From the IMG/VR virus record IMGVR_UViG_3300025383_000009: a DNA stretch of 64,000 nucleotides, one strand, 5' to 3'. Under the pieces are notes generated by a model, which was not told the DNA's origin, searched no databases, and saw only the letters and a list, made by a program, of their open reading frames with translations. Origin of the DNA: a virus (lineage: Duplodnaviria > Caudoviricetes). Made by a program: the position numbers and the translations under genes. Shown in pieces: positions 33,186 to 54,444 of this stretch. Position 1 is the first letter of the stretch; each line of letters starts with the position of its first letter.

Positions 33186-33187
33186 TG

Positions 33188-33865: not shown

Positions 33866-33867
33866 GA

Positions 33868-35330: not shown

Positions 35331-35339
35331 GATAGTCCT

Positions 35340-35368: not shown

Positions 35369-35369
35369 A

Positions 35370-36244: not shown

Positions 36245-36304
36245 GTGTTTCTCCTTTATTAACTTGTCGATCTTATATTGCTATGGGGTCGACAGACCCA
36301 TATT

Positions 36305-37617: not shown

Positions 37618-37624
37618 ACTATAT

Positions 37625-37653
37625 AGTATACCACAACTCCTAATTAATGTACA
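37625..37653 (-). promoter_or_regulatory. Promoter TGTACA-TTAATT-N11-TATACT
   Basis: Family member; ATG 7 nt downstream of the -10 hexamer. Confidence 0.75.
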
Positions 37654-37746
37654 TGCTAACATAAGTTGTTGATTATAAAGACAATTTAAAACTCACCTGG
37701 ACTCACGAGTATCCAGACCTATAGCTTACTATCTATTTATGTAAAA

Positions 37747-39061: not shown

Positions 39062-39136
39062 TTTGTTTTCTCCTTAATAAGAGTCCATTCTATAGTGTTG
39101 GCTCTTTTTTCACGTATTTTTATATTTCCATAATCT

Positions 39137-39325
39137 CTAAATTTTGAAGATATACTGCCTACTGGATATCCAACGCATCTTCTTAGGTGAGTTCTTCTTC
39201 TTGTTTGATACGATCTCAGGGATATCCACATCACTCTCATATACTGAGGTGACTTGATCTGAGTTGATAGCGATTTGTTTTGTTGCATTGCCATCGAATG
39301 CATTTTCAAATAATACGATTGGCAT
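39137..39325 (-). CDS. Hypothetical protein
   Basis: 62 aa; TAATG-type coupling to the upstream gene. Confidence 0.5.
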   Translation of the reverse strand: MPIVLFENAFDGNATKQIAINSDQVTSVYESDVDIPEIVSNKKKNSPKKMRWISSRQYIFKI

Positions 39326-40419
39326 TAGAACGCTCCCAATAAAATAGTTTCTTCGTTGATCCGACCATTTGGAACTGTTGGCTTGGTCGTTAAAGCCTTT
39401 GCTGCTGTATTCAAATTCTTTTTACTTATAGATAAGTCTTTGAAGAACTTCTCAGGATTCCTAAGTGTCCATGACCATGACTTAGCTACACTGTAATTAA
39501 TTATAGTTGTACCCTTAACTGATAATAAGTCTGAGTCATCAGCTATATAAGCCACAAGTTTTCTATACTTGATATTATATGCCCATAACTCCTTAGCACC
39601 AACGATGTCTGTAGGATTACATGACTTAAGATTCAATAGATCGTGCTTAAACATATACTTAAGTTTCTTAACTAATACTGCAGGAGGCTTAACCTTAACT
39701 ACCCTTGGCTTCTTAACAGTAACTTGATGTTGAGCACAGTCATCTACAATAGATTGGATCGCAGCTCTAAACTTTTTAAGTTCTGTCTTAGTAAGGAATG
39801 AATAGCCTTCTGTAAGTTGTTCATCTGTACCAGTCAATGCTTCATCTATCTCATCAACGTTAAGCTTATAGTAGTCACCGATACGTTTAGCGACCATGCC
39901 TGACACGTTGTTAGATAACAAGTGTGCTTTAGTATTGAAGTCCCACGTTTTAGAATGGATAAACTTATCAATAGCATAGTCGATGTCCTCAGAGGCAGCA
40001 CGAGCTGCATCAGTCACACGTTGATCTATAGAGATGACTGGTGCCTTAGGACGATCGTCTACTATAGGTTGATTATAAGAATAGCACTCGTATAATGAGT
40101 CAAGCTTATCTTGTATACCCTTTTGATCCTTATCAGATAGATGCTCACCTTTATTGAGTATAGTAATAAGAGATCCTAATGATAGGAACTCATAATCTGG
40201 CGCCTTTGATAAGACATCATAATATTTCTTATTAGTCTTCTTAAGATAATTATGTACGGCCTTAGCACGTTCACTGTTATCCATATTAAGGTTATAGTAT
40301 CCTAAAGCTTTCATCAAAGACGTACGATAGTCGTCTTGTGTTACCACAGGAGCGCCAGCACCTATGCCTTTAGCGATAGCCTTTTCTTGCCATTCTTTGG
40401 TTGGTTTTTTAGTTTTCAT
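39325..40419 (-). CDS. Conserved T4-like hypothetical protein
   Basis: GAKELWAYNIKYRKL...LSVKGTTI...NGRINEETILL C-terminus. Confidence 0.7.
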   Translation of the reverse strand: MKTKKPTKEWQEKAIAKGIGAGAPVVTQDDYRTSLMKALGYYNLNMDNSERAKAVHNYLKKTNKKYYDVLSKAPDYEFLSLGSLITILNKGEHLSDKDQKGIQDKLDSLYECYSYNQPIVDDRPKAPVISIDQRVTDAARAASEDIDYAIDKFIHSKTWDFNTKAHLLSNNVSGMVAKRIGDYYKLNVDEIDEALTGTDEQLTEGYSFLTKTELKKFRAAIQSIVDDCAQHQVTVKKPRVVKVKPPAVLVKKLKYMFKHDLLNLKSCNPTDIVGAKELWAYNIKYRKLVAYIADDSDLLSVKGTTIINYSVAKSWSWTLRNPEKFFKDLSISKKNLNTAAKALTTKPTVPNGRINEETILLGAF

Positions 40420-40425
40420 ATTGGC

Positions 40426-40454
40426 AGTATACCATAATTAATTATTAATGTACA
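40426..40454 (-). promoter_or_regulatory. Promoter TGTACA-TTAATA-N11-TATACT
   Basis: Family member; ATG 6 nt downstream of the -10 hexamer. Confidence 0.75.
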
Positions 40455-40455
40455 A

Positions 40456-40713
40456 TTATTCAGCTTCTTGGTTTGTAACTGTTTGATAGATCGTCTCAAA
40501 CTCATCGTTCAAAGCTACCTCTTCATTAAAGTTTTGCTTATGATACGTATTAGCAAGCTTAGCAAGCGTTTTCTTAGGGATCTTAAATTCGTCATAAAGG
40601 TTCTTAAGTACTTCTTTTACAAAGTCCTTCTCAGCCTCAACGCGTGTCATAGAATCAGAGATCTCGTTAAGAGCACCTTTGATTTTCTTTTTGTCTTCGT
40701 CTAATAATTGCAT
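40456..40713 (-). CDS. dsbA: Double-stranded DNA-binding protein DsbA
   Basis: ALNEISDSMTRVEAEKDFVKE...KLANTYHKQNFNEE. Confidence 0.85.
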   Translation of the reverse strand: MQLLDEDKKKIKGALNEISDSMTRVEAEKDFVKEVLKNLYDEFKIPKKTLAKLANTYHKQNFNEEVALNDEFETIYQTVTNQEAE

Positions 40714-40736
40714 AATATACCTTTCAAGTTAAAAAT

Positions 40737-40799
40737 AAAAACACACTAGACGAGGCGACCTCGTGGCCACAAGTTCCTGCTTATCTCTAATGTGTTTTT
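40737..40799 (-). ncRNA. Candidate 63 nt three-way-junction RNA or structured dsbA leader
   Basis: 14 bp closing stem and two inner hairpins; G-U pairs only on the minus strand; follows ACTAAATA. Confidence 0.5.
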
Positions 40800-40800
40800 A

Positions 40801-40808
40801 TATTTAGT
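40801..40808 (-). promoter_or_regulatory. Late promoter variant ACTAAATA
   Basis: TAAATA core directly before the 63 nt element. Confidence 0.4.
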
Positions 40809-40934
40809 AAGACTCTCGAAACTACGAAGTGCACTCGTAGCTGACCCATCGGAAGCAGTGGCCCGCTGAGCATGCATACCCATTAAAGCACAGCCAGTGT
40901 CCGCATATATTTTATTGATTGGCTGAGAGTCTTA
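40808..40934 (-). ncRNA. Candidate 127 nt multibranch structured RNA
   Basis: Perfect 10 bp closing stem TAAGACTCTC/GAGAGTCTTA plus four inner stems. Confidence 0.55.
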
Positions 40935-41066
40935 TTCGTCATAGCCAGGTCCCCAGAAGTGAGGGTCGATACCACCTAGATAGTTTAGGTCTTCGTTATC
41001 ATCCTCTTCAATAGGATCTGGCACTGGTGTAATGTAACCGTCTTTTTTGTCTTTGACATTTAACAT
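40932..41066 (-). CDS. 44 aa acidic hypothetical protein (not in ORF track)
   Basis: MLNVKDKKDGYITPVPDPIEEDDNEDLNYLGGIDPHFWGPGYDE*; ATG 6 nt after a -10 hexamer. Confidence 0.55.
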   Translation of the reverse strand: MLNVKDKKDGYITPVPDPIEEDDNEDLNYLGGIDPHFWGPGYDE

Positions 41067-41072
41067 GATATC

Positions 41073-41101
41073 ATTATACCCTTTTTTTGGTTTATTGTAC
41101 A
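41073..41101 (-). promoter_or_regulatory. Promoter TGTACA-N17-TATAAT
   Basis: Family member. Confidence 0.7.
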
Positions 41102-41108
41102 TATATTT

Positions 41109-41297
41109 TTAAGCCTTAACACTGTCAACTGTTGCAAAGCCAGTCACCGCTGCTTTACTGTAACCCTTAGACCAAATGCTGCCAGTCCTATTTACAGGTA
41201 CTTCACTGCCTCGTGGACCATGATATGGCAACTGTTGAACCTTACCACCATTATCTAAAAATTCTTGAACTGCTTGTTGAAATTCTTGTTCTGTCAT
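41109..41297 (-). CDS. SutA-like RNA polymerase-binding protein
   Basis: AVQEFLDNGGKVQQLP resembles the P. aeruginosa SutA core; AAGGAG RBS before ATG 41297. Confidence 0.55.
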   Translation of the reverse strand: MTEQEFQQAVQEFLDNGGKVQQLPYHGPRGSEVPVNRTGSIWSKGYSKAAVTGFATVDSVKA

Positions 41298-41307
41298 AGC
41301 TTTCTCC

Positions 41308-41718
41308 TTACCAACTTGAATTATAAAATACTTCTTCGCCTCTCGCAATTGCTTCGCGAGCTTTCTTGATGAACTCTAAGTCTGATGCTTTATCATCAGC
41401 ATCGAACCTTGAGTCATAACCAAAGAAGAAACCTTCGGTCATAGGTAACTGGTTAGTCTTAACGCGGGCCTCGATATAATCAAGGTCTGCCTCTGTAAGT
41501 TGAAGCTCAACTCCGTTGAAGTCGATCTTTGAGTCTTCGCTGTACTCGTCAGGATACTCGTCGATCAACCATTGTGGAACCTTAGCTCCCTTATCATGCC
41601 ATAACTCTTCCATAAGACCATGAAGAGCGTTGTGTTTTCTCCAGTATTGAAGCTCCGTTGATGGTGCTTCAGCTGCAGATTCTTTAGCGCGGCTATACGC
41701 ATACATATCTAAACCCAT
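41308..41718 (-). CDS. Conserved phage hypothetical protein
   Basis: MGLDMYAY...YWRKHNALHG...GFFFG...YNSSW pattern. Confidence 0.7.
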   Translation of the reverse strand: MGLDMYAYSRAKESAAEAPSTELQYWRKHNALHGLMEELWHDKGAKVPQWLIDEYPDEYSEDSKIDFNGVELQLTEADLDYIEARVKTNQLPMTEGFFFGYDSRFDADDKASDLEFIKKAREAIARGEEVFYNSSW

Positions 41719-41879
41719 TATCTAATCTCCTTGATAAATTTTGCTTTGAGTAAACTTTCAACTATACCATTATCATTATCTTGAGCGGTTAACATCCAAC
41801 CTTCTAAAGTAGTACCTGAAAAGGCATATTGTGGGTTAACAAGGCATTTATAATAATGTCCATTGATTTTAAAAATCAT
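41718..41879 (-). CDS. 53 aa hypothetical protein (not in ORF track)
   Basis: MIFKINGHYYKCLVNPQY...KEIR*; TAATG overlap at both ends. Confidence 0.55.
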   Translation of the reverse strand: MIFKINGHYYKCLVNPQYAFSGTTLEGWMLTAQDNDNGIVESLLKAKFIKEIR

Positions 41880-42166
41880 TATGCAGCCTCCCTTTCATCC
41901 TTCATTAAGCTAAACATGATGTGCTTAGCACGGTTGATGAATTGACGAGCTTCGTTAGCTTGTTGAGGTGATACCCAACCTTCGTTAGCACCGTTGAAGT
42001 CAGCACCGATAACTTCTTGTGCATCACTTAACATGCCTGCTGCGAACATCATTTCCTGACCTGGAAAAGCTTGCATTTTTACCATTTGGTCTAACTGAGC
42101 TTTAGTCATACCGTAAGCTTGTTTTTCCCATTCTAAATCTGATCCTATTGTCATTGCTGGTTTCAT
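41879..42166 (-). CDS. Hypothetical early protein
   Basis: GGAG RBS before ATG 42166; the longer call overlaps the promoter. Confidence 0.6.
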   Translation of the reverse strand: MKPAMTIGSDLEWEKQAYGMTKAQLDQMVKMQAFPGQEMMFAAGMLSDAQEVIGADFNGANEGWVSPQQANEARQFINRAKHIMFSLMKDEREAA

Positions 42167-42197
42167 ATATCTCTCCGTTTGTTGATTTAATATAACC

Positions 42198-42226
42198 ATT
42201 ATACCGGAAAGTCTAATTAATGTACA
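42198..42226 (-). promoter_or_regulatory. Promoter TGTACA-TTAATT-N11-TATAAT
   Basis: Family member heading the early-gene cluster. Confidence 0.8.
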
Positions 42227-42257
42227 TAGGCCCCCTTAAAATAAATAAGGTATACAG

Positions 42258-42290
42258 ATCAATAACTTACGTATTATGCAAGTTATTGAT
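42258..42290. repeat. Perfect 11 bp inverted repeat ATCAATAACTT-N11-AAGTTATTGAT
   Basis: Read directly; right arm recurs at 37663-37677 with one mismatch. Confidence 0.8.
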
Positions 42291-42355
42291 TATATTGGAC
42301 TTTAGTTTGGGTGTGCCCTGGAGCGCCTGGGACAGCGCGGGCTGGAGGATATATG

Positions 42356-44365
42356 CTACTTAGATTGTGCCCTAAAAGTGCCATCCCATTCAGCCGGGAG
42401 GCCCTCTTCCATACGTTCAATCATGTTCATGTAGTACTGCTTGATGGTTACGCTGTCATCTTCGACCAAACCTTTGGCCCATTTGATAGCTTTATCCCAG
42501 TTTCCACGATAGTATTCTTTTATGTATTCATTATGCGCGTGTTTAACTGTCTCACCGATCGTGTAGATCTTAATGCCTTCAGTCTTACCTTTCACTGCGA
42601 TGTTATCTAGTTCAATAACGTTGTAATGGTCTTTAACTAGTTCTGCTGTGCGTGCACCTAAAACAAGCTTAACACCGTACGGCTTAGATTGTCCTTCAAG
42701 CCTTGACGCCAAATTGACTCCGTCACCGAGACAAGTATAGTCAAAACGCTGGCTAGAACCCATATTACCCACAACGACATCAGCAGTGTTAATACCAAGT
42801 CCCATCCCGAAAGCCGGTACGCCTTCTTTAGCAATCTCTTGATTGAACGCATCTAAGTCTCCTAACATTGATAGTGCAGTCTTAACTGCGTTGAGAGCAT
42901 GATCTTTATCATCAAGTGGAGCATTCCAAAAAGCCATCTGTGCATCACCAATATACTTATCAAGTGTTCCGTTGTTCTCTATGATCTTAGCAGTCATAGC
43001 TGTCATGTAACGATTCATGATCTTAGTTAAGCCTTGTACATCCTTACCATAGTGTTCTGATATGGTTGTGAAGCCTCTTACGTCTGTAAACATGATACTT
43101 AATTCTCTTGTTTCACCACCAAGCTTTAATAGTTCTGGGTTCTTTTGTAGTTTATCAACCATTGCTGGTGATAGGTATGTACCAAACTGTTTCTTGATCT
43201 GTAGTTTTTGGTTTAACTCGCTTACAAACTTAACAGTATATGTATGAGCATATACGATAGCCAAAGCAACGATAGGAAAAATCCCATCCAAAAGAACGCC
43301 GTAATGAGAGAAAACATAACTAGAAGCGTAATACAAAAAGCCAAGAAGAAGCAAAATAGGGATAATAGCATATTTCCACCTTGATAGGATAATGATAAAG
43401 ATTGATAATAATATGACTGCTAATACTTCAGCGCCATCTGCCCAGCCAGGTCGTGATATGCTAGTACCTGATGTGAGCGTGTCTAGAACTGACGCTTGAA
43501 GGTAATGAGGAAAGAGTCCACCTCGAGCTGTTGCAACTGGGTTGTTAAGTCCCTTTGCGGTAAGCCCAACAATGACGATACCTCCGTTAAATGATTCTGG
43601 GAGGTCCATAAGACTGTGTTCAATTGGAGTCGAGCTCCAGTCGACCCAGATACGACCGATTGGGTCGGTTGTAATTTTGGAGAAGCTTGGGATTCGAACA
43701 GCTTCGATTCCTGAAACGGAAGATTTGACTTGGAAACTTGGGTCTCCGACTGCGACACGCAAAGTTTCGAGAGTAATACTTGGGTAGAGCAAGCCTCCGC
43801 TTGATACGACCATAGGGATACGACGAACAACACCATCAATTTCAGGTAAGACATTTACAACTCCTATTCCAGCAGCTTTGTTATTAAATAGTTCAATGTT
43901 AGGTTGGATCCCAGGGTAATCAATAGTGAAGTCATGAGCTGGTGATCCAATCTCAGAGACTCCCGGTCTAAATGCTTGTCTAACTTGTTTATCTGTCGAT
44001 GCTACCTGAGGTAAGACGACAGGGTGTCCAGCAAGACTATCAACCAAGTTGGCATCGCGTCCAAAGCGATCAGAGTCAGGCATAAAGATATTAAAAACAA
44101 CAAGACCAGCATGACGGTGATAAAGATCCTCGATAATATTTGCATATTGACTCCTTGGAAATGGGAATTGACCAAGTCTTTCAATCGACTTATCATCGAT
44201 GTTAACCACGTGGACTTGCTTGGAAACGGTCTGTGGTTTACTAGTAATTAGTGTATCAAAGTACCTTAGTCGAACTGACTGCACAAAAGATGGGTCAGAT
44301 GCTCTAATACCTACTAGCAGAGCTAACGTTAACAGTGCAAACCAGGGTGATAATAATCTTTTCAT
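42356..44365 (-). CDS. CHASE2-domain class III adenylate/guanylate cyclase
   Basis: N-terminal TM, CHASE2 region (GQFPFPRS, DGVVRRIP), three TMs, catalytic FTDVRGFT, DKYIGDA, FDYTCLGDGVNLASRLEG. Confidence 0.93.
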   Translation of the reverse strand: MKRLLSPWFALLTLALLVGIRASDPSFVQSVRLRYFDTLITSKPQTVSKQVHVVNIDDKSIERLGQFPFPRSQYANIIEDLYHRHAGLVVFNIFMPDSDRFGRDANLVDSLAGHPVVLPQVASTDKQVRQAFRPGVSEIGSPAHDFTIDYPGIQPNIELFNNKAAGIGVVNVLPEIDGVVRRIPMVVSSGGLLYPSITLETLRVAVGDPSFQVKSSVSGIEAVRIPSFSKITTDPIGRIWVDWSSTPIEHSLMDLPESFNGGIVIVGLTAKGLNNPVATARGGLFPHYLQASVLDTLTSGTSISRPGWADGAEVLAVILLSIFIIILSRWKYAIIPILLLLGFLYYASSYVFSHYGVLLDGIFPIVALAIVYAHTYTVKFVSELNQKLQIKKQFGTYLSPAMVDKLQKNPELLKLGGETRELSIMFTDVRGFTTISEHYGKDVQGLTKIMNRYMTAMTAKIIENNGTLDKYIGDAQMAFWNAPLDDKDHALNAVKTALSMLGDLDAFNQEIAKEGVPAFGMGLGINTADVVVGNMGSSQRFDYTCLGDGVNLASRLEGQSKPYGVKLVLGARTAELVKDHYNVIELDNIAVKGKTEGIKIYTIGETVKHAHNEYIKEYYRGNWDKAIKWAKGLVEDDSVTIKQYYMNMIERMEEGLPAEWDGTFRAQSK

Positions 44366-44493
44366 TTGATAGCGTGTGTCTTGTTATGTTTTAAACTCTT
44401 CTTGATTGCTTTCTTCCAAAGCTTCTCTTCTTTTTTAGGCTTATGCTTAACGCATGCCTTATACATCTTCATTATTAGTTCTTTAACTTTCAT
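44362..44493 (-). CDS. 43 aa very basic protein (not in ORF track)
   Basis: MKVKELIMKMYKACVKHKPKKEEKLWKKAIKKSLKHNKTHAIK*; ATGA overlap with the cyclase start. Confidence 0.55.
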   Translation of the reverse strand: MKVKELIMKMYKACVKHKPKKEEKLWKKAIKKSLKHNKTHAIK

Positions 44494-44494
44494 G

Positions 44495-45385
44495 CTATGC
44501 TCCTTGTATTTTAAACTTAATATACTCTGTTATCAAGTCAGCGACGTCAGTCTCACAATACTGTTCAAACCCTTTAAATCCTGGGTTTGAGTTAGCTTCG
44601 CATACTCTAAAGCCTCTTTTGTCGAATAGTAAATCCACACCTGCAATATCTAGCTTAAGTACTTTTGCAGTCTCTCTAGCTATATATTCAATCTCGTCTG
44701 TTATCTCGTAGTTATGACCAGTGCCACCATTAGTGATGTTAGCTCTGAAGTCACCCTCTGGTGCTGTACGTCTCATAGCTCCTACTACTTTACCACCTAT
44801 GACAAGAACCCTTAAGTCCTCACCTGGACGGTCACCAAGATATTCCTGTACTATCATCGTCTTCTTAGCGTTTAAGATATCGATGAACTCCATCATCTTT
44901 TTGTACTCTCTTATGGTCTCACAGAGGTGTACACCTTCCCCATAAGAACCTGATACCAGCTTAACGACACACGGAAAGCCTATGTTATCAGTCACTAAGT
45001 CATCGTCTATAGGCAACCTTACTAACATCGTGTTTGGTATAGGTAACCCGTTCTTACTTAATATCTGTGATGTCCTTAGCTTATCTTTTACTATCTCGAC
45101 AGCAGAGCTTGAGTTAACACACATCACGCCTGCTTGTTCAAAGTGTCTTATCACTGCTAGCTGGAAAGGTAGTATGCCTGCACCCAACCTAACCAATAAT
45201 AACTTTGGTAACTCTATCGTCTCACCGTCGTACTTGATACCTTCACGTAGGTCTTTATCTACGATGATGTCAAAGTTATCAGGATGGCAGACACGAGCAG
45301 TTATACCTTTTGATGTAAAGCTTTCTACGAGCTTATTAGTCTCGTACTCGTTTCTTTCCTGCTTTGATAATATAATTACAGTCAT
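44495..45385 (-). CDS. rimK: RimK-family ATP-grasp glutamate ligase
   Basis: DKLRTSQIL, FPCVVKLVSGSYGEGV, DLRVLVIGG, FRANITNGG and CEANSNPGF motifs. Confidence 0.9.
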   Translation of the reverse strand: MTVIILSKQERNEYETNKLVESFTSKGITARVCHPDNFDIIVDKDLREGIKYDGETIELPKLLLVRLGAGILPFQLAVIRHFEQAGVMCVNSSSAVEIVKDKLRTSQILSKNGLPIPNTMLVRLPIDDDLVTDNIGFPCVVKLVSGSYGEGVHLCETIREYKKMMEFIDILNAKKTMIVQEYLGDRPGEDLRVLVIGGKVVGAMRRTAPEGDFRANITNGGTGHNYEITDEIEYIARETAKVLKLDIAGVDLLFDKRGFRVCEANSNPGFKGFEQYCETDVADLITEYIKFKIQGA

Positions 45386-45390
45386 GACAC

Positions 45391-45419
45391 ATTATAACTT
45401 ATTATTTAATTAATGTAAA
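45391..45419 (-). promoter_or_regulatory. Promoter TTTACA-TTAATT-N11-TATAAT
   Basis: Family member; ATG 5 nt downstream of the -10 hexamer. Confidence 0.7.
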
Positions 45420-45420
45420 A

Positions 45421-45774
45421 TTATTCGAAGCCTTCGTTGCGTTTTACACGCCATACATAAGACATCTGTGTTCCATCTGGCCTATCATCATTGATAAGTA
45501 TACGCTCACCGTTTGGTAAGTTAAAGATGATGTCGTCAAACCTAATATCATGTTTCTCTAAGAACTTTATAGTATGCTTCTTAAGATACTTTGGTCTAGC
45601 AGTAATTAAGATTATATGGTCCTTTTCAGGTATAGTATCCCAAAACTCTTTAACACCAGGCAATAACTTATCTTTACATACCGCAGACTTTAATAGGTTA
45701 TACCTTAATATAGTCCCATCAAGATCGATAAACCAAGTCTTGCGATGTTTAGACTTTAAGTTAGTTAACTTCAT
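45421..45774 (-). CDS. Small HAD-superfamily phosphatase
   Basis: WFIDLDGT motif I, LITARP and LINDD. Confidence 0.75.
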   Translation of the reverse strand: MKLTNLKSKHRKTWFIDLDGTILRYNLLKSAVCKDKLLPGVKEFWDTIPEKDHIILITARPKYLKKHTIKFLEKHDIRFDDIIFNLPNGERILINDDRPDGTQMSYVWRVKRNEGFE

Positions 45775-46338
45775 TTATAGTGGTAACCAGAGCCATAAAC
45801 CTTGTGACATCAATACTACACCAACCAAACATAATAGGAATGATGAGTAGAATAATGGCATTGATACAGCAAGGATAGACGCTGATAACAACACGATAGA
45901 TAGCTGATAAGCTGTACCTGCATAACCGATCCATGGAGATCTCTTCTTAGCATAGTCACGGTCAGCTTCTAACTTCTTAGCTGTATCATATAATGCAGGT
46001 TTTCCTTCTGGTCCTTCATCATAGCTTTTAGCTTTTACTGCAAATTTCTTAGCTAGATCTGGGTTTGTAGCAGTCTGAGCTGAGATCTCATACTGTGTTT
46101 GCTTTACTGATTTAGCTTGGTAGAAGTTCCATAAGTCGTTTGCTTTGATCGTGTTGTTCATGATGAGTGAACCTAATGAACCTCCGAACCATACGTTAAA
46201 TGCCAATAAAGCAGCAAATATATTAATGATTAAACCCGCATGTGATTTAATCTTAACCTCTTTTTCTGATCTTGAAGGTCCAATGTTCTTAGTCTCTTCC
46301 TTTGTTAATGTCTTAATGACCATATCTTCTAAAGCCAT
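45775..46338 (-). CDS. DUF4337-like membrane protein
   Basis: Two TM segments flanking ANDLWNFYQAKSVKQ. Confidence 0.7.
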   Translation of the reverse strand: MALEDMVIKTLTKEETKNIGPSRSEKEVKIKSHAGLIINIFAALLAFNVWFGGSLGSLIMNNTIKANDLWNFYQAKSVKQTQYEISAQTATNPDLAKKFAVKAKSYDEGPEGKPALYDTAKKLEADRDYAKKRSPWIGYAGTAYQLSIVLLSASILAVSMPLFYSSFLLCLVGVVLMSQGLWLWLPL

Positions 46339-46339
46339 G

Positions 46340-47404
46340 TTAGTTTCCTTTTTGATTGATGGTTATACTATTGGTCGTTTGGTCTTGATTTTTTAAATTT
46401 ACCGTTACGCCATTTTGTATAATATTTATATTGTATCCTTTATCTTTATCTATTAATACTGTAGCACTATCTTTAACTGTTCTTTGTATCATCCAATATG
46501 TTTGTTTGTCAAAAATATAAACTTGATTTAGAGCATTATATCCTACAACAAAAGTAGCTAACAATGTATTATCAAGAGCATTTGTTAAATAGTTTGTATC
46601 AAGAGGATTAACATCTAGTTCATTGAAACCCGCATATGGGTCTTTAAATACTTTTGAATCTAATGCATTTTGTTCCAATCCTGTAAACTCTAAAGCAGAA
46701 CCAGATTTATTGGCTATTTCAGCTTGTATTCTTTCAACAACTTCTTTTGGAGGTTTAACGATAAGCATATTATCAATAGCTGATTCTGATAAAGCTAATA
46801 GAACAGGTTTAAGAGGTTTAATTTCTGATGATTTTGTTACTGTAGCTTGAAATGCTTGGTTTAAAACAACTTTTCCCATAGCTGTGCTAACTTCAATTGA
46901 ACCAACTGAACCATCTGGATTAGGTAATAAAATAATGAGAGATTGACCTATTTCATCTACTGTCATTGTGAATGCTGTACCACGAACAGCAACAGTTGCC
47001 GTTGGTGTATTAATAGCCACATTTTTATTATTTTCATGGGCAATATTACCAGATGCATAACGAACAGTTCCCATTGTTACATTGAGAGCTAATTTACCTG
47101 CACCTTTTTTATTGGGGTCATAGACAAAATCGTCTATAAGAAGTTTTGAATGTTCGGTAACACGAACTTGTGTGTTATCTTCAAATGTAATGCCTACTAT
47201 TCCATTGCCTGTTTGAACAATATCATTACTATCTATATTTGATTTAGGTTTAGCCTCTATTACATCTTTATTTCTAGTAATAGAGGCTGGACCTTTTTGT
47301 TCAGTTATAGAACCAATTACCGCCCAACTAGTGTTGGATGACAGACACAGAAGCACCGCTACCAGTAAGGTTAACGATTGCACTATTTGGGTTGGTCGTA
47401 CCAT
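46340..47404 (-). CDS. FecR-domain periplasmic protein
   Basis: Signal peptide; VQTGNGIVGITFEDNTQVRVTEHSKLLIDDFVYDP...GTVRY...TPTATVAVRGTAF. Confidence 0.85.
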   Translation of the reverse strand: MVRPTQIVQSLTLLVAVLLCLSSNTSWAVIGSITEQKGPASITRNKDVIEAKPKSNIDSNDIVQTGNGIVGITFEDNTQVRVTEHSKLLIDDFVYDPNKKGAGKLALNVTMGTVRYASGNIAHENNKNVAINTPTATVAVRGTAFTMTVDEIGQSLIILLPNPDGSVGSIEVSTAMGKVVLNQAFQATVTKSSEIKPLKPVLLALSESAIDNMLIVKPPKEVVERIQAEIANKSGSALEFTGLEQNALDSKVFKDPYAGFNELDVNPLDTNYLTNALDNTLLATFVVGYNALNQVYIFDKQTYWMIQRTVKDSATVLIDKDKGYNINIIQNGVTVNLKNQDQTTNSITINQKGN

Positions 47405-48035
47405 CTTGAGTCACACTTATATTATTTGAATTACCAATGTTGTTAATACTAATACTATGGCCTGCACCAGCACCAGTACCATTTGCACCTGTTTGGCTTG
47501 TGGTGATACTGTTATTGTTACCTGCAATTGCTATAGTATCTGTAACATTTTTACTGTTTATGGTACTTGTTATCGAATTACTATTTCCTACAGTAGTGAT
47601 GCTATAGTTATAATTACTCGAATCTCTCATTGTTCCTATATTCAATACAGAATTATTGTTACTACCTGAAAACGATAAATTTAAATTACCGTTATCAGTA
47701 CCAAAGTTTCCGTAATTCAATACGATACCGTTACTATTACCATCTTGAGATATTACTCCTGTAGAACCACCACCAACAAAATTACCTGTGATAGAGTTGT
47801 TCATACCGTTTTGTGTGATACCTAAATTAATACTGTTACCATCAATCACAAATGATGGACTACCAACATTAGTAGGATCTCCTACCGTGTTGTTAGAACC
47901 TGTTTGTGTTATGGTGACTGTAGAATTATCAGCGTTAGTTTGGTCAATATAAACACTATTACCTCCACTATCGACTGCCAAAGCACTAAATGCTAATAAC
48001 AAACCCATCACAAAAGTGATAAGCTTACTTTTCAT
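47328..48035 (-). CDS. Curlin-repeat (CsgA/CsgB-like) secreted beta-solenoid protein
   Basis: Signal peptide MKSKLITFVMGLLLAFSALA; repeated Q/S-x-G-x-x-N units; N/S/G/T-rich; AAGGAG RBS before ATG 48035. Confidence 0.7.
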   Translation of the reverse strand: MKSKLITFVMGLLLAFSALAVDSGGNSVYIDQTNADNSTVTITQTGSNNTVGDPTNVGSPSFVIDGNSINLGITQNGMNNSITGNFVGGGSTGVISQDGNSNGIVLNYGNFGTDNGNLNLSFSGSNNNSVLNIGTMRDSSNYNYSITTVGNSNSITSTINSKNVTDTIAIAGNNNSITTSQTGANGTGAGAGHSISINNIGNSNNISVTQDGTTNPNSAIVNLTGSGASVSVIQH

Positions 48036-48807
48036 TCTTTTTCTCCTTAAATTGCCACATACCTTTTTTTTCACCTTGAATAATCAATTGCTCTACCGCC
48101 AGGTCTGTAGCTGCTTTTATGGCGTGTATAGAAGCCTCTGTTTGAGATATTCCTATCTCTTGTTCAAAATTTTGTGTTCCATTATCAAAAAACTTAAATA
48201 TAGCTACACCTGCTGTATAACTCAATATGGTTTTTTGAGCGTTTACTGTTAATAGCACTTCACCTGTTTGTGTGCTAATTGCTCTAATACTTACAGTCAC
48301 CACATCTTCTTGATATTGTGTGTCTGGTCCAATTCCTAACCAACGAACACCAATACCACCTGTTCTTATATTTGTATCATAACTTATAATTCCGCCTTCA
48401 ATAATCATACCTGCATACAACATAGGTCTGATTCCAGAAGGATCTCTTGCTTCATCTCTTGCTGAACGAATTAGTTGTCTTTCTTTTAATAAGTTGTCTA
48501 TACCAACTCGTTCTACTATTCTAAACCATTTTCCATCACCAGCATCTTCTAATGATTTTAATAATACTGTTTCACCGCCTTGTGTTACAGCTGATGATAA
48601 TTTAGCAATTGTAGCAGAATCTTTTCTTTGACCAGTTTTATCAGCAAAACTATAAACAGCTACAACTACTTTACCTTTAGCAGGTTCAGGTAATGGAGCT
48701 CTAGCCCATTTCATTGGCATAATTTCTGGTTCTTTTTTAATAACATTCATTGGCGGTGTGCAGCCAATTATTGTTATACACATAAGTGCTATTAATATTT
48801 TTTTCAT
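48025..48807 (-). CDS. csgG: Curli secretion channel CsgG
   Basis: Lipobox IIGC; VAVYSFADKTGQRK, LSSAVTQGG, WFRIVER and IIEGGIISYDTN motifs. Confidence 0.92.
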   Translation of the reverse strand: MKKILIALMCITIIGCTPPMNVIKKEPEIMPMKWARAPLPEPAKGKVVVAVYSFADKTGQRKDSATIAKLSSAVTQGGETVLLKSLEDAGDGKWFRIVERVGIDNLLKERQLIRSARDEARDPSGIRPMLYAGMIIEGGIISYDTNIRTGGIGVRWLGIGPDTQYQEDVVTVSIRAISTQTGEVLLTVNAQKTILSYTAGVAIFKFFDNGTQNFEQEIGISQTEASIHAIKAATDLAVEQLIIQGEKKGMWQFKEKKNEK

Positions 48808-48808
48808 A

Positions 48809-49249
48809 TTAGAAACTTAAAGTTCCAATAGGAATACTAACTTGTGTTACATTACCATTTTGATCCTTAACAGTCATGTTAATCATGTCAGCTGTTTTAG
48901 TGTATGTAATAGTATTGCCTTCAATGGTAACAGTTCCACTATTTTGTGGATTTTCACCAAACAGATTATTAATTAATTGTGTAGATAGTTGAGCATAGAC
49001 TCTGCTCTCAAAGTTAGTCAAGAACTTGGCTAATATAGTATTACCTGCAGCTGTAGCAGCATCAATTGCAGCTTGTTTTTTGGCCGCATAAATTGCTTGT
49101 TTACGAGTGTATTCAGTATTCTCTATTGTTTGAACGTGAGAAGAGTATCCTATACCTGAAAAAGAAGGAGATTTAAATTGAAACGTCTGTTCTGCATATG
49201 CGCTACTTGACAGTATCGTCAGTATGAGAATTCTTATTGTTTTCTTCAT
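48809..49249 (-). CDS. csgF: Curli assembly protein CsgF
   Basis: Signal peptide followed by TFQFKSPSFSG; FLTNFESRVYAQLSTQL; adjacent to csgG. Confidence 0.8.
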   Translation of the reverse strand: MKKTIRILILTILSSSAYAEQTFQFKSPSFSGIGYSSHVQTIENTEYTRKQAIYAAKKQAAIDAATAAGNTILAKFLTNFESRVYAQLSTQLINNLFGENPQNSGTVTIEGNTITYTKTADMINMTVKDQNGNVTQVSIPIGTLSF

Positions 49250-49484
49250 CTTTAATTTCTCGCATCATTAATACTACATTAAGTTTTTGATTTAATCTAA
49301 TCAAATCATTATCTAGCATTCTAATACGGTCAATCAAAGCAATCACTATCTTTTCAGTTTCATTTAATACTGGTTCTGTTTCTTCTGTTGCCCACTTCCA
49401 AACATAAAAAATAAGATAACCCATACCGCAAGCAGCGATAATAGGAAATCCATATTTACTAATTAAATCTGCTAATTCTTCCAT
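49203..49484 (-). CDS. Small single-TM coiled-coil protein (paralog B)
   Basis: LISKYGFPIIAACGMGYLIFYVWKW...RMLDNDLIRL. Confidence 0.7.
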   Translation of the reverse strand: MEELADLISKYGFPIIAACGMGYLIFYVWKWATEETEPVLNETEKIVIALIDRIRMLDNDLIRLNQKLNVVLMMREIKDEENNKNSHTDDTVK

Positions 49485-50269
49485 TAAATTTTATCCTGTG
49501 GATGCTCAACACCTTGAGACCAATCATATAGATTTAAAACATAATGACCTATAGCATGGTTATCAAGTAAACTGAATTTTTTATTTTTAACACCTCTGAT
49601 AAAGCCACGCCATACATCTTTAGTCAATTGCCATCCACTAAAACTTCTCAAATTGCCCCAATGGTTCATGTAATACATTCCACCAAAATGTTTATAAGGC
49701 CAAACAGGAACACGAGGAACCATATCTGTATTGTTTACAAATCTAAAATGTAATACACCTGTGTTTGTAATGCCTTCAATATACTCATGTGTTCCAACTC
49801 TTGGACTTCCATAAGTAAATAATGCTTGAGCACTTGGTAAATTTTCATCTCTTTGTAGTTTATAAGCTACAATAGTTGCCATCGCTGCACCTAAACTATG
49901 ACCGGTACACCAGATGGTTCTTTTCTTACCTAATTCTTTTAACATTGGTTCTAATGTTGGCCAAATATTATCTACACTATGTTTAAAACCATAATGAACT
50001 AAACCTTTGCCTGTTGAACTTGGAACAGGATTAGCTTCTAAATCTGCCGCTAAATCTCTCCAATCAGTTGGTTGTGTGCCTCGGCAAACAACGATTGCAT
50101 CTTCATCATTAGTCAATAAATAAGCTTGACTTCCATTGCAATCAAAGAACTCACTTCTAAAACCTAACTCATCAAATTTGGGTTTTGAATCGAATGGATC
50201 CGAATATGCTAAATTGCTTAATACAGCAAATAAATGAGCTTGTTTTGGAAAAGGCATTACTTTAATCAT
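49484..50269 (-). CDS. Class 3 lipase (alpha/beta hydrolase)
   Basis: VVCRGT, VHYGF, GHSLGAA, TYGSPRVG and NNTDMVPRVP; AAGGA RBS before ATG 50269. Confidence 0.9.
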   Translation of the reverse strand: MIKVMPFPKQAHLFAVLSNLAYSDPFDSKPKFDELGFRSEFFDCNGSQAYLLTNDEDAIVVCRGTQPTDWRDLAADLEANPVPSSTGKGLVHYGFKHSVDNIWPTLEPMLKELGKKRTIWCTGHSLGAAMATIVAYKLQRDENLPSAQALFTYGSPRVGTHEYIEGITNTGVLHFRFVNNTDMVPRVPVWPYKHFGGMYYMNHWGNLRSFSGWQLTKDVWRGFIRGVKNKKFSLLDNHAIGHYVLNLYDWSQGVEHPQDKI

Positions 50270-50270
50270 T

Positions 50271-50549
50271 TTAATCCTTTCTAGCGTCGTTTTTGCCATC
50301 TGCTCTAGCAATACGATCCAAATCAGGACGAACTTTTAAAGCGTTAGACATTAAAGTATCAATTCTAATAATATCATGATTCATGGTTTTAACTCTATTG
50401 TCCAAAGCTATAATTATACCATTTAAGCCCTTGACTCTTGAGAGAACTCCTGCGAGGATAAACTTTACAGTTAAAAAGATGAAATAACCACCAGCACAAG
50501 CAGCGGCTATTGGAAAACCCAAATCGGCAATTAACTTAAATATATCCAT
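50271..50549 (-). CDS. Small single-TM coiled-coil protein (paralog A)
   Basis: LIADLGFPIAAACAGGYFIFLTVKF...KTMNHDIIRI. Confidence 0.7.
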   Translation of the reverse strand: MDIFKLIADLGFPIAAACAGGYFIFLTVKFILAGVLSRVKGLNGIIIALDNRVKTMNHDIIRIDTLMSNALKVRPDLDRIARADGKNDARKD

Positions 50550-50594
50550 ATTAACTTGACATTCATGAATGATTATTGTATAATCCTTGATAAG

Positions 50595-50602
50595 TATTTA
50601 TA
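50595..50602 (-). promoter_or_regulatory. Late promoter TATAAATA heading the curli/FecR operon
   Basis: Exact consensus in the divergent intergenic gap. Confidence 0.7.
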
Positions 50603-50618
50603 TAACTAGGAGAGTCAA

Positions 50619-50930
50619 ATGGAAGTAATTGCATTCAAATTAATCACAGGTGAAGACGTTTTAGGCGAAGTAGAAAGTCAGTCTGAAACAGAATTCGTTG
50701 TTTTAAATCCAGTAGGTATTTCAATTGTTCGAGGACAAGATGGTAAACCAAACGTAGGTTTTTCGCCTTTTCCACTCCATGCAGAACAAAAGAAAGATGC
50801 CACAGTCATTTTAAGTAAAAGAAACGTAGTATATAACTATGTTCCAGCAGAAGACTTTATCACAAACTATAAACAAATATTTGGGGCAGGTTTAGTTGTT
50901 CCACCACAAAAGAAAATCATCACAGGATAA
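50619..50930 (+). CDS. Conserved small T4-like protein (Sm-like pattern)
   Basis: FKLITGEDVLGEV...VLNPV...FSPF; GGAG RBS. Confidence 0.7.
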   Translation: MEVIAFKLITGEDVLGEVESQSETEFVVLNPVGISIVRGQDGKPNVGFSPFPLHAEQKKDATVILSKRNVVYNYVPAEDFITNYKQIFGAGLVVPPQKKIITG

Positions 50931-53461
50931 TGAGTAACTTTTACACTAATGTTCAAAGTTTTGGCAATAACATTCTCTATCGAGGTGTTATGGATGGCAA
51001 AAGAGTAAAACAGAGAATTGAATATTCTCCATCTCTTTTTGTTCCATCCAAACGTATAACAAACTTCACAACACTTGAAGGTGATTACCTCGACCAAAAA
51101 GTATTTGGTACCATGAAAGACGCTAGAGATTATATCAAACAATTCGATGGTGTGTCAAATGGTCCTAAAATATATGGTAATACAAAATATGAGTATGCGT
51201 TTATTGCCGACCAACACAAAGGTATGGTTGAATGGGACCAAGATAAGATATCAATTGCAGTAATCGATATTGAAGTTGGTTCTGAAAATGGTTTCCCAGA
51301 CCCATACGAAGCAAATGAACCTATTATTGCTATTGCTGTTAAGTATCTCAATGGCGAAATGTATGTCTTTGGTCTTGGTGCATATGAAACTCAAGGTAAA
51401 GAAATCTATGTTAAATGCCGTGATGAATATACATTGTGTAAAAGATTTATGGAACTATGGACAAGAAAATGTCCAGATATCGTAACTGGATGGAATACAA
51501 AATTCTTTGATATACCATACATCATCAATCGATTTAGAAGAATACTTGGTGAAGATGAGGCAAAGAAACTTTCTCCATGGAATTATATTGGTGAAAGAAA
51601 AACTGTTGTGAACAATCGTCAGATGATTGCCTATGATATTCTTGGTGTTTCTTCTTTAGACTACATTGAACTATACAGATGGTATGCTCCTGGTGGCAAG
51701 TCACAAGAATCCTATAAACTTAATTCTATTGCATCAGTTGAACTTGGTGAAGAAAAGATATCATATGATGAATATGATTCTCTACATGATTTATACAAAA
51801 TGAACCATCAAAAGTTTATTGAATATAATATCAAAGACGTAGAACTTATTGTTTCATTGGAAGACAAATTAAAACTCATTGAACTTGGTTTAACTTTGGC
51901 ATATGATACAAAATCAAACTATGATGATATCTTTGCACAAACTAGAATGTGGGATTCATTAACATATTCTTATTTGCTTGAAAAGAACATCATTGTTCCA
52001 CCTAAAGTTGTTAAAGATAAAGATTCAGCATTTGAAGGCGCATATGTAAAAGACCCACAAGTAGGCAAGCATGATTATATCGCCAGCTTTGACCTAAATT
52101 CACTCTACCCCCACCTCATGATGCAATTCAATATCTCACCTGAAACACTTATTGATCCAGAAGATTATACAGATGAGATGAGAGAAGTGTTATCTCAAGG
52201 TGTTAATGTTGATAAGTTATTATATAAAAAGATTGATACATCAAAACTCCAAAACGCAACACTTACTCCAAATGGTCAATTCTTTAGAACTGATATGATG
52301 GGTTTCTTACCAAAGATGATGGAAGAAATGTATGAAGATAGAAAGAAATTTAAAAAATTAATGTTAAAGGCGAAACAAGATTATGAAGACGAAACAGATG
52401 ACACGAAAAAGTATGAAATTGAAAAACGAATTGCAAGATACGATAATCTTCAACTTGCTAAGAAAGTTTCTCTTAATAGTGCTTACGGTGCTCTTGGTAG
52501 TCAGTATTTTAGATTCTACGATTTACGCATGGCTTTGGGAGTAACAACATCTGGTCAATTAGCAATTCGTTGGATTGAAAACAAACTCAATGACTATATG
52601 AACAAGTTATTACAAACTGAAACAGATTATGTTATTGCTTCAGATACAGATTCAATTTATCTTAAACTTGGTCCTATCGTTGATAAATTCTGTAAAGATA
52701 AGTCGATTGAACAAACTATTCAATTCATGGATAAAATCTGTGAAGATAAGATTCAGCCATACATTGATAAGTCTTATGGCGAACTAGCAGATTATCTCAA
52801 GGCATATTCCCAAAAGATGCAAATGAAACGAGAAGCGTTGGCTAACAAAGGTATTTGGACTGCTAAGAAACGATACATTCTCAATGTGTTTAATAACGAA
52901 GGTGTTGCTTATAAAGAACCAAAGATGAAAGTCATGGGTCTTGAGATGATTAAGTCATCAACACCATCTGCCATTAGAACAAAGATGGCAGAAGCAATTA
53001 AACTTATGATGATTGGCTCTGAAAACGATATACATGAGTTTATTAAAAAGTTTAAAGAAGATTTCAAAAAGTTACCACCAGAAGAGATTTCTTTTCCTCG
53101 TGGCATCAATGGTTTAAATAAATACTCTGATGCTGTGACTTTATATAAATCAGGAACACCGATTCATGTAAAGGGAGCAATCTTATATAATAACTTTATT
53201 AAACAAAATAAACTAACAAAAAAATACAATCTCATACAAGAAGGCGAAAAGATAAAGTTTGCTTATTTGAAAATGCCTAATCACTTTAAGGATACTGTTA
53301 TATCCTATCCTAGCAGATTACCTAAAGAATTAAATTTACATGATTATATTGATTATGATATGCAATTTGAAAAAGCATTCATAGAGCCAATTAAAATCAT
53401 TCTTGATTGTATGGGTTGGACAACAGAAAAGATTAACACTTTGGAGGATTTCTTCTCATGA
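50930..53461 (+). CDS. gp43: Family B DNA polymerase gp43
   Basis: DIEVGSE, SFDLNSLYPHL, KVSLNSAYG and ASDTDS motifs; no intron or intein evident. Confidence 0.97.
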   Translation: MSNFYTNVQSFGNNILYRGVMDGKRVKQRIEYSPSLFVPSKRITNFTTLEGDYLDQKVFGTMKDARDYIKQFDGVSNGPKIYGNTKYEYAFIADQHKGMVEWDQDKISIAVIDIEVGSENGFPDPYEANEPIIAIAVKYLNGEMYVFGLGAYETQGKEIYVKCRDEYTLCKRFMELWTRKCPDIVTGWNTKFFDIPYIINRFRRILGEDEAKKLSPWNYIGERKTVVNNRQMIAYDILGVSSLDYIELYRWYAPGGKSQESYKLNSIASVELGEEKISYDEYDSLHDLYKMNHQKFIEYNIKDVELIVSLEDKLKLIELGLTLAYDTKSNYDDIFAQTRMWDSLTYSYLLEKNIIVPPKVVKDKDSAFEGAYVKDPQVGKHDYIASFDLNSLYPHLMMQFNISPETLIDPEDYTDEMREVLSQGVNVDKLLYKKIDTSKLQNATLTPNGQFFRTDMMGFLPKMMEEMYEDRKKFKKLMLKAKQDYEDETDDTKKYEIEKRIARYDNLQLAKKVSLNSAYGALGSQYFRFYDLRMALGVTTSGQLAIRWIENKLNDYMNKLLQTETDYVIASDTDSIYLKLGPIVDKFCKDKSIEQTIQFMDKICEDKIQPYIDKSYGELADYLKAYSQKMQMKREALANKGIWTAKKRYILNVFNNEGVAYKEPKMKVMGLEMIKSSTPSAIRTKMAEAIKLMMIGSENDIHEFIKKFKEDFKKLPPEEISFPRGINGLNKYSDAVTLYKSGTPIHVKGAILYNNFIKQNKLTKKYNLIQEGEKIKFAYLKMPNHFKDTVISYPSRLPKELNLHDYIDYDMQFEKAFIEPIKIILDCMGWTTEKINTLEDFFS

Positions 53462-54444
53462 TATTTTTCACATTTTTAGCTGCATTCTTATTATCAAGTA
53501 TAGCAGCTTATTATTCAGTCATAGGTTTAGCAAAGATATTCGTTGGTGCTTTTTGGCCAATCGTATTCATGGGTTCAGTTTTAGAATTTGCTAAATTAGT
53601 AACCGCTTCATGGTTATATCGTAATTGGAAAACAGCACCAGTATTATTAAGAACATATTTAACTATTGCTGTTTTAATTCTAATGCTAATCACATCAATG
53701 GGTATTTTTGGTTTCTTAGCAAAAGCACATATTGATTCTACAATTTCAACTGGTGAAAATACTGTTGAATTAAGAACATTAAACCAACAAGAAAAGATTA
53801 CACATGATAGATTAGACTATCTTCTTGCTCGTGCTAAAGACCCATCAACAGCAAGTAATAAACTTGATAGACAAATTCAAGAAACACAAAAAGAATTATC
53901 ATCAATCAATAAACAAAGATTGCCATTATTAAGTCAAGAGAATAAACAACTTGCCGATATTGGTCCAATCAAATATGTTTCCGAATTAATTTACGGTACA
54001 GATGATATAAATGGTGTAGATAAGGCTGTCCGCTTGGTAATCATGATAATAATGGTTGTATTTGACCCCTTAGCTGTGTTATTATTGGTAGCTGCTAATA
54101 TGGGAATAGCGGCAAAGAAAGAAGAAGAAAAGCCAGAAGGTTGGAAACAAGTTTGGCAACCGGTAAGTGAAGACCCATGGCATGATGAACCTAAAGAACA
54201 AGTAAAAGAACCGGAAGTAGAGAAACAAAACGATACAATTGAAGTTGAAAAAAAGAATGTAGCAAAAATAGATACACCTGAGCCGTCTATTGTAATAGAT
54301 GGTGCTTCAGGTGAAACTATTCCGCCATTATACGAAACAAGAATGGTTCATAATGGCCACGGAAGATTTGAAGAGCAATCAGTTCCAATTCAAACATATG
54401 ATGAGAAAGTTGAATTGGCTTTTAAGGAAAAAAAGGAGAAGTAA
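53458..54444 (+). CDS. Membrane protein with coiled coil
   Basis: Three N-terminal TMs, ITSMGIFGFLAKAH and IMVVFDPLAVLLLVA. Confidence 0.7.
   Translation: MIFFTFLAAFLLSSIAAYYSVIGLAKIFVGAFWPIVFMGSVLEFAKLVTASWLYRNWKTAPVLLRTYLTIAVLILMLITSMGIFGFLAKAHIDSTISTGENTVELRTLNQQEKITHDRLDYLLARAKDPSTASNKLDRQIQETQKELSSINKQRLPLLSQENKQLADIGPIKYVSELIYGTDDINGVDKAVRLVIMIIMVVFDPLAVLLLVAANMGIAAKKEEEKPEGWKQVWQPVSEDPWHDEPKEQVKEPEVEKQNDTIEVEKKNVAKIDTPEPSIVIDGASGETIPPLYETRMVHNGHGRFEEQSVPIQTYDEKVELAFKEKKEK

Follow-up and report, generated by a model that had tools for sequence, protein, structure and literature searches.

A freshwater copy of the viral type VIII secretion (curli) region, carrying extra genes, in a T4-like phage

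The gene cluster described here lies at positions 42356-50602 of a 64,000-nucleotide (nt) stretch of viral DNA (Duplodnaviria; Caudoviricetes; IMG/VR record IMGVR_UViG_3300025383_000009), which we refer to as the window, and is a freshwater copy of the published viral type VIII secretion (curli) region, with extra genes. The published region, known from pelagiphages, includes gp011-019 of Pelagibacter phage HTVC008M and gp97-104 of Methylophilales phage Melnitz. The window encodes the same families in the same order, namely two small membrane proteins (A and B), CsgF, CsgG, a curlin-repeat protein, a FecR-domain protein and an adenylate cyclase, and its proteins are 29-59% identical to their HTVC008M and Melnitz orthologues. 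A T4-like myovirus backbone is also common to both: the window encodes proteins of the baseplate wedge and hub, a tail lysozyme and tail fibres, and adjoining the region is a gene for a family B DNA polymerase with ~50% identity to cyanophage gp43. The freshwater origin is evident from metagenome reads, because the stretch 42356-47404 is complete in 4 freshwater metagenome runs and covered to at least 81% in 16 more. The genes shared with the pelagiphage region are as follows, in the order in which they are read (aa, amino acids; TM, transmembrane).

50271-50549, minus strand: small membrane protein A, 92 aa; a TM helix at the N-terminus (from hydropathy), a coiled-coil segment and a charged C-terminal end
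49203-49484, minus strand: small membrane protein B, 93 aa; paralogous to A and weakly similar to a holin family
48809-49249, minus strand: CsgF-like protein with a Sec signal peptide; Pfam CsgF 1.4e-16, 61 bits against a cut-off of 25.8
48025-48807, minus strand: CsgG outer-membrane pore lipoprotein, lipobox IIGC; Pfam CsgG 4.1e-49
47328-48035, minus strand: curlin-repeat protein, the presumed substrate of the pore; Pfam Curlin_rpt 2.5e-6, 27.8 bits against a cut-off of 20.7
46340-47404, minus strand: secreted FecR-domain protein with a Sec signal peptide; Pfam FecR 7.4e-9
42356-44365, minus strand: receptor adenylate cyclase; Pfam CHASE2 3.7e-38 and Guanylate_cyc 1.5e-18

These genes form part of a minus-strand run, from 50549 to 42356, of twelve co-oriented open reading frames (ORFs) whose boundaries overlap or abut, and no convincing terminator was found within it. 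The run and nearly all of its domain labels had been put forward in a preliminary description made from the sequence and its ORFs, and Pfam agrees with them, supporting Lipase_3, CsgF, CsgG, Curlin_rpt, FecR, DUF4337, RimK and CHASE2 with a class III cyclase domain. By prediction, the products are spread over outer membrane, periplasm and inner membrane.

The whole cluster has been reported in podo- and myo-pelagiphages by Wittmers et al. 2022 (PMC9599517), who listed histidine kinase(s), CsgF, CsgG, CsgA/B, FecR, a second CsgA/B and adenylate cyclase, showed that it is distributed ocean-wide and argued that it originated in Alphaproteobacteria. Earlier, Zaragoza-Solas et al. 2020 had found csgF, csgG and neighbouring genes in pelagimyophages, in a region that they described as hypervariable; the freshwater SAR11 myophages of their set were without the curli operon. 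A role of the pore in lysis was discussed by Buchholz et al. 2022. The belief, expressed in the preliminary description, that only csgF and csgG were known in phages thus has to be abandoned, because FecR and the cyclase were included in the 2022 publication. Compared with the pelagiphage region, the copy in the window is freshwater rather than marine, has a lipase gene between A and B, carries genes for a DUF4337 protein, a HAD-like protein, a RimK-family ligase and a 43-aa peptide in place of a second curlin gene, and has an early-type promoter motif preceding its RimK-to-cyclase segment. Two published labels are also to be reread: the 'HK' (histidine kinase) is a 92-aa holin-like protein, and 'FecR' is a secreted protein and not an iron-responsive anti-sigma factor.

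To place the window among its relatives, IMG/VR was surveyed twice, with the cyclase and with CsgG as seeds; each seed returned >500 viral contigs, of which the best 80 were kept (loci with L numbers below). CsgF, CsgG, curlin and FecR genes were all present in 45 of the 50 informative cyclase-seeded loci, and FecR and cyclase genes in 58 of the 60 informative CsgG-seeded loci. With F denoting CsgF, G CsgG, C a curlin-repeat gene, R FecR and Y the cyclase, the commonest orders were A-B-F-G-C-R-(C)-Y and, where B and A are inverted and lie downstream, F-G-C-R-(C)-Y. Overall, the results show that the linkage is conserved over >100 viral contigs, and the co-occurrence of the cyclase and FecR genes with csgFG on which the preliminary description relied is borne out in other phages.

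The same description had flagged the join near 46340 as a possible assembly chimera. An artefact at this position was ruled out by independent contigs that span it and by 20 freshwater runs: L003 and L004, from two other metagenomes, align to window positions 41877-49474 with 95.5% identity over 7.6 kb, straight across 46340, and the junction is genuine. From 38000 up to 49474, the window resembles L003/L004 at 95-99%, and from 46340 or 48323 to ~53500 it resembles L085/L117 at 92-94%; L085 aligns from exactly 46340 to 53510 at 91.8%, and its left side differs. Because L003/L004 span position 46340 and L085 starts exactly there, we regard it as a natural recombination boundary between variants. 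A second mosaic breakpoint is seen at ~49474-49484, where L003/L004 have a second copy of A in the place of the lipase gene of the window.

The assignment of the pore is clear for CsgG, which matches Escherichia coli CsgG structures over its full length (2.6e-44). The csgF gene is adjacent to csgG and co-oriented with it, and its product is 34-43% identical to the CsgF proteins of Melnitz and HTVC008M. A sequence search of this product against solved CsgF gave no meaningful match, and its assignment therefore rests on the Pfam and PHROG profiles. The curlin gene directly follows csgG, with the FecR-domain gene next, and its product is homologous to the curlin-repeat proteins of HTVC008M and Melnitz, has a weak NCBIfam CsgA match and is laid out as a signal peptide followed by a stretch rich in N, S, T and G with repeats of the x-I-x-Q-x-G type. 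As the start of this gene, the ATG at 48035, which gives the signal peptide MKSKLITF..., is likelier than the GTG at 48074.

Like the canonical E. coli curli system (csgBAC/csgDEFG), the phage thus has a CsgG lipoprotein pore, CsgF and a secreted curlin-repeat subunit, whereas no Pfam family for CsgE, CsgC/CsgH or CsgD was found among the module ORFs. The reported absence of csgE, csgC and CRP accordingly holds for these ORFs, among which neither CsgE nor CsgC nor a cyclic nucleotide monophosphate (cNMP)-binding domain was detected. Alphaproteobacterial curli operons are closer: their F-G-C order and families are those of the phage, and CsgE and CsgD are missing in both. Four loci have, directly behind FecR or behind a second curlin gene, a gene for an autotransporter with a PF03797 beta-domain (L116:9565-11550, L118:9841-11814, L102:12562-14541 and L130:15267-17450); all four are cyclase-less. 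Over their N-terminal ~240 aa, these autotransporters share homology with the second curlin-repeat protein found in other phages, as though type V secretion were used here to display a passenger of the curlin type. Such a fusion speaks for a cell-surface destination of the curlin proteins.

We next consider the FecR-domain protein, whose AlphaFold2 model (predicted local distance difference test score, pLDDT, 85) consists of a beta-sandwich at residues ~30-200, a linker of ~70 aa that is modelled with low confidence and contains conserved LD motifs, and a small beta domain spanning residues 280-351. In model comparison, the N-domain resembles the C-terminal signalling domain of PupR with a Z score of 15.3, and residues 27-122 superpose on the whole 76-residue RIN domain of MpIBP (5ix9) with a Z score of 10.1 and 26% identity. 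RIN is the periplasmic plug of the RTX adhesin MpIBP and keeps this pore-threaded adhesin on the cell. A FecR-type anti-sigma regulator was considered and rejected: the protein has a cleavable signal peptide, no cytoplasmic domain and no central TM or other hydrophobic segment. Because of the signal peptide, the lack of a cytoplasmic domain and the FecR fold at Z 15, we conclude that it is not an anti-sigma factor; neither an extracytoplasmic function (ECF) sigma factor nor a TonB-dependent transducer was found among the module ORFs.

The C-terminal beta domain is specific to the viral family. Folded alone, it gives a compact beta domain (pLDDT 88), and it found neither a solved-structure match nor a match to CsgA (best Foldseek E 0.12, best Z 3.9). 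Its sequence ends in I-x-I-x-Q, with I349 and Q351 conserved in at least 90% of homologues. The pattern I-x-I-x-Q-x-G ... I-x-I-x-Q was examined as a possible curlin repeat, and a profile comparison with phage curlins gave E 1e-3 and a probability of 20%, against 0.31 for the reversed control; because of this weak profile score and the missing structural match to CsgA, we do not claim a curlin-repeat identity for the FecR C-terminus. When the protein was compared with 401 alphaproteobacterial genomes, it was matched via the N-domain only, mostly by giant frames of 1,000-6,900 aa, in which the FecR domain lies near the N-terminus wherever its position was read. Co-folding of FecR 29-354 with CHASE2 22-306, carried out without alignments, scored 0.00, which speaks neither for nor against binding.

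One specific arrangement suggested by these features is that the FecR/RIN-like N-domain may plug the periplasmic side of the pore, with the linker threading through CsgG and the C-terminal domain lying outside with the curlin layer; threading of the linker is our own conjecture. The protein would then be a miniature pore-retained surface protein, the plug state of which is read in the periplasm by the CHASE2 cyclase, a possibility that we put forward as tentative and rather unlikely. Relative to MpIBP RIN and LapA-type adhesins, the phage protein is small, and its gene adjoins CsgG and not a TolC-type type I secretion system.

The cyclase has the topology of a receptor, with a TM segment, a periplasmic CHASE2 domain, three further TM segments and a class III catalytic domain, and its closest solved relatives are class III adenylate cyclases. 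The metal-binding Asp pair, the substrate Lys and the transition-state Arg (D428, D474, K470 and R555, respectively) are invariant in 58 phage homologues, and the window cyclase also keeps the adenine-specifying D542 and the transition-state N551; judged by these residues, its active site is intact. The somewhat higher G+C content of the gene is a general trait of these loci. Its 80 closest cellular relatives are at most 36% identical to it and come mostly from Alphaproteobacteria. In L051, a phage locus without curli genes, the CHASE2 cyclase is immediately followed by another ORF (L051:12177-13406, 409 aa) that also contains a cyclase catalytic domain.

Comparison with bacterial genomes indicates where the phage cluster departs from its cellular counterparts. 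Seven true csgF-csgG-curlin loci drawn from the 401 sampled alphaproteobacterial genomes have no FecR, A/B or CHASE2 cyclase gene within 9 kb, and the loci of the 80 closest bacterial CHASE2 cyclases have no csgG, csgF or curlin gene within 10 kb. Among the genomes searched, the combination of curli genes with a FecR-CHASE2 pair is peculiar to phages, and Wittmers et al. concur (PMC9599517). The FecR-CHASE2 association by itself is found in bacteria, as the preliminary description had stated: the literature holds CHASE2 receptors with exported FecR-domain proteins in Burkholderia ('BiofilmReg', a LysM-FecR protein with a CHASE2 kinase) and Sinorhizobium (cyaD1/SMc02177), and a FecR-domain ORF occurs near 30 of the 80 closest bacterial CHASE2 cyclases, with at least 10 giant proteins encoded directly upstream. 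Three such giants from Bradyrhizobium and Methylobacterium (L164:5383-9933, L186:6024-9698 and L180:3503-9796), which are upstream of CHASE2 cyclases and co-oriented with them, were scanned; each has an N-terminal FecR domain and cadherin-like or immunoglobulin-like repeats, and two of the three have RTX repeats and thereby the build of an RTX adhesin. From this domain content, a giant FecR protein and its CHASE2 cyclase may constitute an adhesin-receptor pair; as far as we found, such giant-adhesin/CHASE2 cyclase pairs are not described as a signalling unit in the literature. The bacterial pairs share with the phage the receptor build (TM, CHASE2, three TM, output) and an exported FecR protein encoded nearby. 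They differ in the partner, which in bacteria is a LysM protein or a giant RTX-type adhesin and in the phage a protein of ~350 aa with a phage-specific C-terminal domain.

The small membrane proteins A and B are paralogues (31% identity, 9e-13) and are orthologous to HTVC008M gp011/gp012 and Melnitz gp97/gp98; both match phrog_18771 (A at 8e-34, B at 5e-32), and A occurs in most related loci. Each has one TM helix and a charged C-terminus, as in holins, and residues 1-48 of B match the PHROG family phrog_4898, 'holin', at 1.1e-5, a weak match of one of the two paralogues. Among further weak matches of A/B are Pfam YvrJ (E 0.21) and YvrJ as the nearest named Atlas cluster (0.88), and A itself has no Pfam match even at E<=10. 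A holin-like nature of A and B is therefore a lead, not a finding. The published identification as histidine kinases was also considered; because the proteins are 92-93 aa long and contain no HisKA or HATPase_c domain in Pfam at E<=10, this label is unsupported.

Between the conserved genes lie five others.

49484-50311, minus strand: class 3 lipase/esterase, no signal peptide, GHSLG motif; Pfam Lipase_3 7.6e-27, PHROG esterase/lipase 3e-22
45775-46338, minus strand: DUF4337 membrane protein, accessory insert; Pfam DUF4337 2.9e-24
45421-45774, minus strand: small HAD-like protein, 117 aa, accessory insert; DLDGT motif, phrog_1238 1.9e-9
44495-45385, minus strand: RimK-family alpha-L-glutamate ligase, accessory insert; Pfam RimK 2.9e-49 and Rimk_N, TIGR00768 9e-68
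44362-44493, minus strand: lysine-rich peptide, 43 aa; its stop codon overlaps the start codon of the cyclase (ATGA)

The lipase gene is an accessory placed between A and B, an order (A-lipase-B) that recurs in L023, L029/L126, L085 and L117. The FecR-cyclase slot is filled in the window by the DUF4337, HAD-like, RimK and 43-aa peptide genes; most relatives have a second curlin-repeat gene at this place, which is frequent but not universal and is missing here. The DUF4337 gene recurs after FecR or between A and B (L007, L013, L076, L077, L087 and L138), in some phages occupying the same A-B slot as the lipase in the window. In L076/L077, the order B-DUF4337-A is found on the opposite strand after the cyclase, and in L077 a Peptidase_S11 (D-Ala-D-Ala carboxypeptidase) gene (L077:13145-13915) lies between the cyclase and B. 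Both the A-B slot and the FecR-cyclase slot thus take cargo. As to the HAD label given earlier, the DLDGT motif is present, but the Pfam match (Acid_phosphat_B, 1.3e-4) reaches 22 bits and stays below the cut-off of 27. The 43-aa peptide has no family match in Pfam or PHROG. The same small ORF is found directly 5' of the cyclase in many RimK-less loci (e.g. L009, L010, L017 and L019); because it recurs there without RimK, the peptide gene travels with the cyclase.

Two promoter-like motifs are associated with the run.

50595-50602, minus strand: TATAAATA, a T4-type late-promoter-like motif read from the sequence, ~45 nt upstream of gene A
45391-45419, minus strand: TTTACA-N17-TATAAT, an early-type sigma-70-like motif that agrees with the consensus at 11 of 12 positions and is separated by 5 nt from the RimK ATG

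Both had been called promoters in the preliminary description. The late-type motif is present at 50595, but the window shows no enrichment of this octamer (9 copies against 8.9 expected), and it is a putative promoter by virtue of its position only. The octamer TATAAATA is found again at 46423-46430 (minus strand), within the 3' end of the FecR gene; the DUF4337 gene starts ~85 nt farther on, and the site may serve the inserted genes as an internal late promoter. The early-type motif at 45391 is likewise present and belongs to a family, T(G/T)TACA-N17-TATAAT, that is enriched in the window (13 found, 3.7 expected; 0 of 100 shuffles reached 13); its promoter role is putative as well. Its position, with the RimK ATG 5 nt past the -10 box, suggests a leaderless mRNA. 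Eight sites of this family lie on the minus strand of window positions 33157-45419, and the family as a whole is mostly intergenic and on the minus strand; one member, at 42198-42226, comes just after the cyclase, and another just before RimK.

Taken together, we lean, if only slightly, towards the following reading of this copy of the published region. Late in infection, a CsgG/CsgF pore would be placed in the outer membrane of the host, and the curlin-repeat protein would be exported through it to the cell surface. The FecR protein would act as a periplasmic partner of the export apparatus, be it as an adaptor, a gate or a pore-retained anchor, and would have no part in iron regulation. The CHASE2 cyclase, where present, would read a periplasmic state linked to the apparatus and convert it into cyclic AMP (cAMP) acting on host targets. 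What we infer in this way extends to fibre formation, the partners of the FecR protein, the cAMP output, a role in lysis and the benefit to the phage.

Several observations weigh against this reading. The cluster splits: L102, L116, L118 and L130 have F-G-C-R without a cyclase (as A-B-F-G-C-R in the first three; L130 is without A and B nearby), and L015, L051, L076 and L077 have a cyclase without F-G-C-R. Because FecR stays with the curli genes upon such splitting, the cyclase is best seen as a frequent add-on to a core of pore, substrate and FecR. In the window, four unrelated genes and the early-type promoter motif lie between the cyclase and the rest, so that expression of the cyclase may be separate from that of the late genes. 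Further, 20 of the 58 phage cyclases, including that of Melnitz (L002:9974-12025), have Ser, Gly or Ala at position 542 and Ser at 551, and the output of these enzymes may be altered or weak. Finally, no cNMP-binding domain (PF00027) was found in HTVC008M, Melnitz or three large IMG/VR contigs; since the genomes searched hold no such phage receptor, any cAMP would act on host proteins or on another kind of receptor.

The preliminary description had proposed that an amyloid fibre, FecR and the CHASE2 cyclase together form a trans-envelope sensor, the cAMP of which tunes lysis timing or superinfection exclusion in a manner similar to T4 lysis inhibition. The predicted location of the strongly linked parts in the outer membrane, periplasm and inner membrane is consistent with such a relay, as are the association of FecR with CHASE2 in bacteria and the weak holin-like character of A and B. 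However, the phages searched encode no cAMP receptor, the run contains neither endolysin nor spanin, and the holin match is a weak one (1e-5) of one paralogue. Moreover, because FecR is kept with the curli genes in cyclase-less loci, the relay is not obligatory, and we consider this proposal unlikely.

It is improbable to a similar degree that the region consists of two units that merely share a hypervariable island, i.e. a curli-FecR surface module and an independent host-takeover cyclase that raises cAMP, with no physical or signalling link between them. The reciprocal splits listed above, the early-type promoter motif and four unrelated genes that intervene in the window, and the hypervariability noted by Zaragoza-Solas et al. 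2020 would all be expected of two such units. However, 58 of the 60 CsgG-seeded loci keep the cyclase within a few kb and in a conserved order although the cyclases themselves are 37-100% identical, and the cyclase has an extracytoplasmic sensor domain, the bacterial relatives of which pair with FecR-domain proteins.

A device for lysis or egress, an idea proposed in print by Buchholz et al. 2022, would have CsgG/CsgF as a hole in the outer membrane, with A, B and the lipase breaching membranes and with curlin and FecR as accessories. The match of B to the PHROG holin family, the small size, single TM helix and charged C-terminus of both A and B, the recurrence of a lipase between them and the late-promoter motif upstream are in keeping with this idea. 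Against it, a secreted curlin-repeat protein is encoded in nearly every locus, often twice, which argues that the pore has a substrate. In addition, from general knowledge and the literature, the CsgG channel is ~1 nm wide and does not by itself disrupt the outer membrane, and FecR and the cyclase are left unexplained, so that we regard a lysis device as distinctly improbable. The suggestion of Zaragoza-Solas et al. 2020 that an ungated CsgG acts as an uptake pore, admitting larger nutrients to the infected cell, agrees with the lack of a CsgE gate among the module ORFs but is scarcely credible, because it offers no explanation for CsgF, the secreted curlin proteins, FecR, A, B and the cyclase, whose genes are all conserved together with that of the pore.

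Overall, the cluster extends to freshwater T4-like phages, and its curli part and cyclase part are separable. Phages of abundant aquatic bacteria spend several kb on a pore, an amyloid-type substrate and a receptor cyclase, of which CsgG and the cyclase are each found in >500 viral contigs and which cultured hosts are reportedly without. The likeness of the FecR protein to a periplasmic plug, together with the bacterial adhesin-CHASE2 pairs, provides a concrete hypothesis for what CHASE2 receptors sense. If true, a pore-retained FecR protein would allow outside-in signalling, in which the state of a surface structure is passed on to cAMP, and the bacterial pairs of giant FecR-cadherin-RTX adhesins and CHASE2 cyclases would work on the same principle.

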